DNA from: Escherichia coli
Lineage (GTDB): Bacteria > Pseudomonadota > Gammaproteobacteria > Enterobacterales > Enterobacteriaceae
Assembly (NCBI RefSeq): GCF_003334765.1
Contig: NZ_QOWT01000003.1
Reading direction: 5' to 3' (one strand)
Length of the DNA: 64,000 nt
The translations under genes were made by a program, and so were the position numbers. Of the stretch, positions 11,189 to 11,546 are shown one piece after another. The notes beneath the pieces were generated by a model that saw nothing but the letters and a program-made list of their open reading frames with translations, ran no database searches and was not told where the DNA came from. Within the stretch, counting starts at the first letter, position 1. Every line of letters starts with the position of its first letter.

Positions 11189-11261
11189 TAAAAAGGCGCT
11201 GAATGGCGCTTTTTTATGGGAGACCAGAAACAAAAAAACACCCGTTAGGGTGTTCAATAAT

Positions 11262-11338
11262 TGGTTGCGGGGGCCGGATTTGAACCGACGACCTTCGGGT
11301 TATGAGCCCGACGAGCTACCAGGCTGCTCCACCCCGCG
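11262..11338 (-). tRNA. metZ: Initiator tRNA-fMet (fMet1 type, anticodon CAU, 3' CCA encoded)
   Basis: Reverse complement reads CGCGGGGTGGAGCAGCCTGGTAGCTCGTCGGGCTCATAACCCGAAGGTCGTCGGTTCAAATCCGGCCCCCGCAACCA, the canonical E. coli tRNA-fMet1; only one copy is present in the amiC-mltA gap. Confidence 0.95.
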
Positions 11339-11546
11339 TCCGTGGATGCGCACTATACTCCGCTCGCGTTTTCATGCAACCTTTTTTTTACCCCGATCAC
11401 GGATTTGGCATGATTTTGAACAAAAACAAATCACTAAAGCCTATTTTTTGTGCAAAATTTGCGTCAGGGAGAGGCTGCTCATTTCATTAAACGCGGCGGT
11501 TTGTTATCTTCGTTGCGCCTTATTTTTTAACCTGAAGAAGAGAACA

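Follow-up and report, generated by a model that had tools for sequence, protein, structure and literature searches.

A single tRNA-fMet1 gene at the metZWV position of an Escherichia coli assembly, probably resulting from assembly collapse of a tandem array

The closest described counterpart of the locus analyzed here is the metZWV operon of Escherichia coli K-12, which Kenri and colleagues reportedly characterized in 1994 as consisting of three tandem tRNA-fMet1 genes. The operon is also described in PMC3017606, where three consecutive G-C pairs in the anticodon stem represent a defined initiator tRNA feature, and where a G rather than an A at position 46 distinguishes tRNA-fMet1 (metZ/W/V type) from the tRNA-fMet2 encoded by metY of K-12. 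The level of initiator tRNA was reported to track the number of its genes, since deletion of all three metZWV genes left approximately a quarter of the tRNA and slowed growth by about 20% (PMC3017606; PMC8248024). Loss of metZWV was furthermore accompanied by cold sensitivity and by initiation with non-initiator tRNAs (PMC3017606). Functions beyond the tRNA itself have been assigned to the operon transcript. Its internal transcribed spacers bind, and co-purify with, the small RNAs RybB and MicF (PMC4583644), whereas the full-length metZWV precursor binds Hfq via a weak Hfq-binding sequence, and the metW-metV spacer competes for Hfq in vitro (PMC10710024). The study of E. coli tRNA copy number by McDonald et al. 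(2015) does not mention the initiator tRNA (PMC4539685).

In the window, i.e., the whole 64-kb stretch of E. coli DNA analyzed in this study, ARAGORN identified one tRNA gene only, a tRNA-Met(CAT) located on the minus strand at positions 11262-11338 and featuring the anticodon cat at position 35. The Rfam tRNA model RF00005 matched this gene with 61.4 bits (E = 5.6e-12; gathering score 29). The gene is housed in a 358-bp gap between the stop of amiC (11188) and the start of mltA (11547). Its left neighbor amiC, encoding N-acetylmuramoyl-L-alanine amidase (9935..11188, plus strand), was delimited by the NCTC9087 annotation via gap-free alignment and by the end of the open reading frame at 11188. 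The right neighbor mltA, encoding murein transglycosylase A (11547..12644, plus strand, coordinates according to the NCTC9087 annotation, with the ATG at 11547 evident from the sequence), is oriented divergently from the tRNA gene. In the intergenic region between mltA and tcdA, an Rfam match to the sRNA ES036 (CssrF) was observed at 12766-12808 on the plus strand (46.5 bits compared to a gathering score of 37.6).

The tRNA encoded at 11262..11338 shows the hallmarks of an initiator, namely a non-standard, unpaired C1 x A72 position (5' C and 3' A in the Rfam alignment) and an anticodon stem with three consecutive G-C pairs (G29-31 : C39-41) in the sequence UCGGGCUCAUAACCCGA. It carries G46 and matches each of the K-12 metZ, metW, and metV copies in 77 of 77 bases, identifying it as tRNA-fMet1. 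Upstream of the gene, a metZ-type promoter can be read from the sequence at 11351..11378 on the minus strand, which is 100% identical to K-12. The hexamers would be TTGCAT as the -35 element (11378..11373) and TATAGT as the -10 element (11356..11351), separated by a 16-nt spacer and followed by the GC-rich discriminator GCGCATCC, approximately 5 nt from the mature tRNA 5' end. The promoter flank is matched exactly by the primer metZWVko_fp, and the G residue immediately 5' of the -10 box corresponds in position to the D4 mutation (PMC3017606). A consensus promoter scan around the tRNA gene reported no promoter, because the -35 element fits the consensus in only three of six bases. On the opposite side, the terminator scan placed an intrinsic terminator of the tRNA unit at 11226..11255 (minus strand), consisting of a GC-rich hairpin (11255..11236) and a subsequent T-run. 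Its sequence is the one found 3' of metV in K-12, as deduced from flank identity, and is matched exactly by the primer metZWVko_rp (Kapoor et al. 2010, PMC3017606). Since the gene, its stringently controlled promoter, and the terminator are intact, a functional tRNA-fMet1 is to be expected from the locus as written, where the gene represents a complete, expressible transcription unit.

The initial annotation had noted only one tRNA-fMet1 gene between amiC and mltA and had proposed a metZ-metW-metV triplet for K-12; both statements were confirmed, the latter by alignment to reference genomes. The K-12 derivative CJ236 harbors three annotated tRNA-Met genes between mltA and amiC (record positions 2947387-2947683), in agreement with ARAGORN, whereas two such genes are present at the locus in strain 99-3165. 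The K-12 array has a period of 110 bp, composed of the 77-bp gene and a 33-bp spacer of the sequence TCACCGTACTGCTTTACTTCATCAAATTTTAAT or its variant TCACCGTACTGCTTTTACTTCATCAAATTTGAT. In the three-way alignment, all window bases were invariant, and the window was short of exactly two 110-bp units (220 bp) relative to the three-copy reference. Promoter, terminator, and flanks are unchanged compared to K-12 (100% identity), and the 220-bp difference falls somewhere within the 77-bp repeat 11262..11338, a finer placement being impossible. The 33-nt spacer TCACCGTACTGCTTT(T)ACTTCATCAAATTT(G/TA)AT was not found anywhere in the window when three mismatches were allowed. Accordingly, the window shares with the K-12 operon the position between amiC and mltA, an identical tRNA, the metZ promoter region, the metV terminator, and the flanks, but possesses one gene and no spacers instead of three tandem genes with two 33-nt spacers.

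To place the strain among its relatives, the closest genomes were ranked by the adjacent 25 kb (window positions 12001-37000), leaving out the locus itself. NCTC9087 (one mismatch), H3, and Z217-2 (two mismatches each) were the closest over this region, and all of them carry three copies; the single-copy state of the window is therefore a derived one. For positions 1-25000, the best match was BR1220 with three mismatches, no exact match being found among the complete RefSeq E. coli genomes. Comparison with NCTC9087 over the complete 64 kb revealed seven substitutions, no small indels, and two structural differences. One of these consists of the 220 bp missing from the tRNA array, the other of an IS3 element that only NCTC9087 possesses. 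The latter splits a gene encoding a TPM-domain protein, which is uninterrupted in the window at about 52775-52777. Amino-acid differences between the window and NCTC9087 were confined to ptrA and queE. The corresponding NCTC9087 proteins have accession numbers unlike those of the neighboring genes, and the differences may therefore be variants of NCTC9087 itself. Between queE and ygcE, the window also contains a CRISPR array (54314-54713) with seven 29-nt type I-E-like repeats (GTGTTCCCCGCGCCAGCGGGGATAAACCG) at a spacing of 61 nt, which is equal in length to that of NCTC9087 and shows no substitutions.

Beyond E. coli, 80 Enterobacteriaceae species representatives with mltA were examined, 67 of which have a complete upstream flank. 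Among these 67, three copies were found in 47 representatives, two copies in 16, one copy in two (Enterobacter mori and Lelliottia nimipressuralis), and four copies in one, the remaining representative having no copy (an "NN" gap). Three copies are thus the usual and probably also the ancestral state within the Enterobacteriaceae.

The copy number at the locus was further surveyed in 5,426 complete RefSeq E. coli genomes by means of queries spanning both flanks, with E-value cut-offs so strict that only an uninterrupted match passes. Next to amiC, a single copy was recorded in 109 genomes (approximately 2%), two copies in 116, and three copies in 3,233, while at least 33 genomes have four or more copies. 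The sum of one-copy and two-copy genomes (225) agrees with the 226 genomes in which the match extended over 80% or more of a 1.4-kb query. Another query, in which the promoter flank and the tRNA were combined with the spacer, recognizes arrays of at least two copies regardless of the amiC side. It matched 5,194 genomes, so that at most 232 (4.3%) have a single copy, no copy at all, a gap, or a spacer that diverges. The single-copy arrangement is thus already found in 109 public complete genomes. Examples are BR1220, J53, MC1061, MG1655p, O104:H4 2011C-3493, and Xuzhou21, which feature the same arrangement as the window without any difference at the locus; among the records listed, the junction of amiC flank, tRNA, and promoter flank is shared over 377 nt with 98.4-100% identity.

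About 1,900 of the surveyed genomes (approximately a third) fit none of the amiC-flank queries. The resulting shortfall of three-copy genomes appears to be due to an island located between amiC and the array and not to other copy numbers. In two such genomes that were opened, both with three copies, a genomic island separates amiC from the tRNA array. The first island encodes type VI secretion genes (tssB and tssC), the second a KpsF/GutQ isomerase and a phosphoglycerate dehydrogenase. An island of the KpsF/GutQ type is also present in strain ST648, where the array is replaced by 'n'. The 3' end of the tRNA-fMet array appears to act as an integration site for islands, and the island at this position is known from extra-intestinal pathogenic strains as the metV island. 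No island is present at the locus in the window.

The single copy in the window probably arises from assembly collapse, in which case the living strain would have the usual three copies. The assembler would have merged the three identical 77-bp genes, together with the two nearly identical 33-bp spacers between them, into one, and nothing biological would have changed. The sequence itself shows one copy, a difference of exactly 220 bp, and intact flanks at the locus; this difference would have arisen in silico. The window equals a three-copy array minus exactly two units, with nothing else changed, which is the pattern that a collapse produces. Since a deletion and a collapse both yield exactly the window sequence, the sequence alone cannot separate them, and circumstantial evidence has to be considered, which leans towards collapse rather than real deletion.

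One line of this evidence concerns the distribution of single-copy records over sequencing projects. When 87 of the 109 single-copy genomes were inspected, at least 58 of them were found to sit in multi-member project series, among them WP*-ESBL (nine genomes), GF chicken-meat (eight), the CP0672xx-3xx block (six), STS/STK and TUM (four each), several groups of three genomes, and nine pairs. Every large series mixes several flank haplotypes, and common ancestry therefore fails to explain the grouping. These values are plain counts and not a statistic, and are suggestive of a single-copy pattern that follows the pipeline and not phylogeny. Single-copy records also occur as singletons inside highly clonal, array-bearing groups, as exemplified by O157:H7, in which Xuzhou21 has a single copy while PV15-279 and OK1 have arrays. 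Likewise, K-12 derivatives sharing one three-copy ancestor were deposited with one copy (J53, ME8067, C3026, MG1655p, MC1061, and OV2), two copies (MT102, one DH5a, and one C600), three copies (CJ236 and others), or four copies (XL10-Gold), and unrelated K-12 strains from one project were both single-copy in two cases (J53 with ME8067 and MC1061 with OV2).

A second line of evidence is provided by assemblies in which the array was visibly broken. The 'complete' genome of ST648 (NZ_CP008697.1) has a single 'n' at the array site (L005, position 1500), with an initiator tRNA being neither annotated nor detected at the locus. In Enterobacter asburiae INSAq146, a two-base 'NN' (2274-2275) within the lone tRNA-fMet gene joins its 3' and 5' parts, which shows directly that the array collapsed during scaffolding. 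Moreover, in 11 of the 80 species-representative assemblies a contig ends in or beside the array, and several such contigs start in the middle of a tRNA. The exact repeats in the three-copy array are about 79-95 bp long, as counted from K-12 sequences, and would exceed the common k-mers of de Bruijn assemblers. However, the remainder of the window looks clean, differing from NCTC9087 by only those seven SNPs and no small indel over 64 kb; its seven-repeat CRISPR array is intact; and real copy-number change is known at this locus (HS, IAI39, and the J53 lineage).

The last point leads to a genuine contraction, according to which two 110-bp units were deleted in the recent ancestry of the strain. 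This explanation is plausible but less likely than collapse. The deletion could have proceeded via the identical 77-bp direct repeats, either by unequal homologous recombination or by replication slippage, leaving a single gene flanked by the metZ promoter and the metV terminator and removing both internal transcribed spacers. The exact integer of units and the position of the junction inside the repeat are as recombination predicts. Two copies were found in the Sanger-era genome IAI39, in both O145:H28 strains, and in E. albertii NBRC 107761, and in these variants the array changes by whole 110-bp units, as in the window. The four-copy variants HS (three assemblies) and XL10-Gold represent the same array, again altered in whole 110-bp steps, with a copy number different from that of the window. 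Four copies, which are also found in at least 30 other genomes, cannot be explained by assembly collapse, and real change therefore occurs. The species representatives likewise span one to four copies.

J53 and the transconjugant TSW4848-W1, a pair of J53-like K-12 assemblies obtained in different laboratories, both have one copy at the locus, and a single 8-bp indel is all that distinguishes them across 24.4 kb. A true single-copy state is thus suggested for at least one laboratory lineage (J53). The indel resides in the ygdI-gcvA intergenic region, near locus position 17000; at this site, the window has the length of J53 and aligns to it without a gap. As for fitness, fewer initiator-tRNA copies are reportedly favored in poor media (Samhita et al. 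2014, J Bacteriol 196:2607). A strain with a single copy at the locus would be viable, and even deletion of all three genes causes slower growth and cold sensitivity only (PMC3017606; PMC8248024). On the other hand, the clustering of single-copy records by project, along with the overt gaps and broken contigs at the locus, speaks against a genuine contraction, and the nearest relatives all possess three copies. Furthermore, stepwise recombination should make losses of two units rarer than losses of one, but the records with a single copy (109) and those with two (116) are equally common.

Descent from a lineage that never had a tandem array, for which nothing specific speaks apart from the single copies of Enterobacter mori and Lelliottia nimipressuralis, is highly improbable and was rejected, since the flanks are 100% identical to those of three-copy K-12, at least 5,194 of the 5,426 E. 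coli genomes surveyed carry more than one copy, three is the mode across the Enterobacteriaceae (47 of 67), and, above all, the three-copy state of NCTC9087, H3, and Z217-2 effectively refutes it. With this, contraction and assembly collapse, the two readings offered by the initial annotation, are the only ones left.

A practical consequence concerns the use of public data. Public assemblies do not give a dependable tRNA-fMet copy number for this locus, and, because one to four copies have been deposited for a single K-12 ancestry, comparisons of tRNA gene counts between strains should be checked against the reads.

It is less likely that the strain truly has one gene, which would amount to about half the initiator-tRNA dosage, the absence of metZWV spacer RNAs, and a natural instance of the low-copy state that was reportedly favored under nutrient limitation in competition experiments. 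If this were true and metY, which lies outside the window, were kept, the number of initiator-tRNA genes would decrease from four to two, corresponding to approximately half of the normal dosage and, by extension, roughly half of the normal amount of initiator tRNA. The spacer RNAs binding RybB, MicF, and Hfq would be absent from the strain. Comparable conditions have been created in the engineered strains of the Varshney laboratory (delta-metZWV and the promoter-down strains D4 and D27), which resemble the window in a lower tRNA-fMet dosage at the same locus but had all three genes removed or silenced, while the window keeps one. As one fully expressed copy is left, the effect would be milder than in these strains, and since reduced dosage has already been studied in them, a natural example would add little. 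The known effects of a lowered initiator-tRNA level are modest: growth in rich medium is slightly slower, start codons are selected with less fidelity, and in poor medium there may be an advantage.
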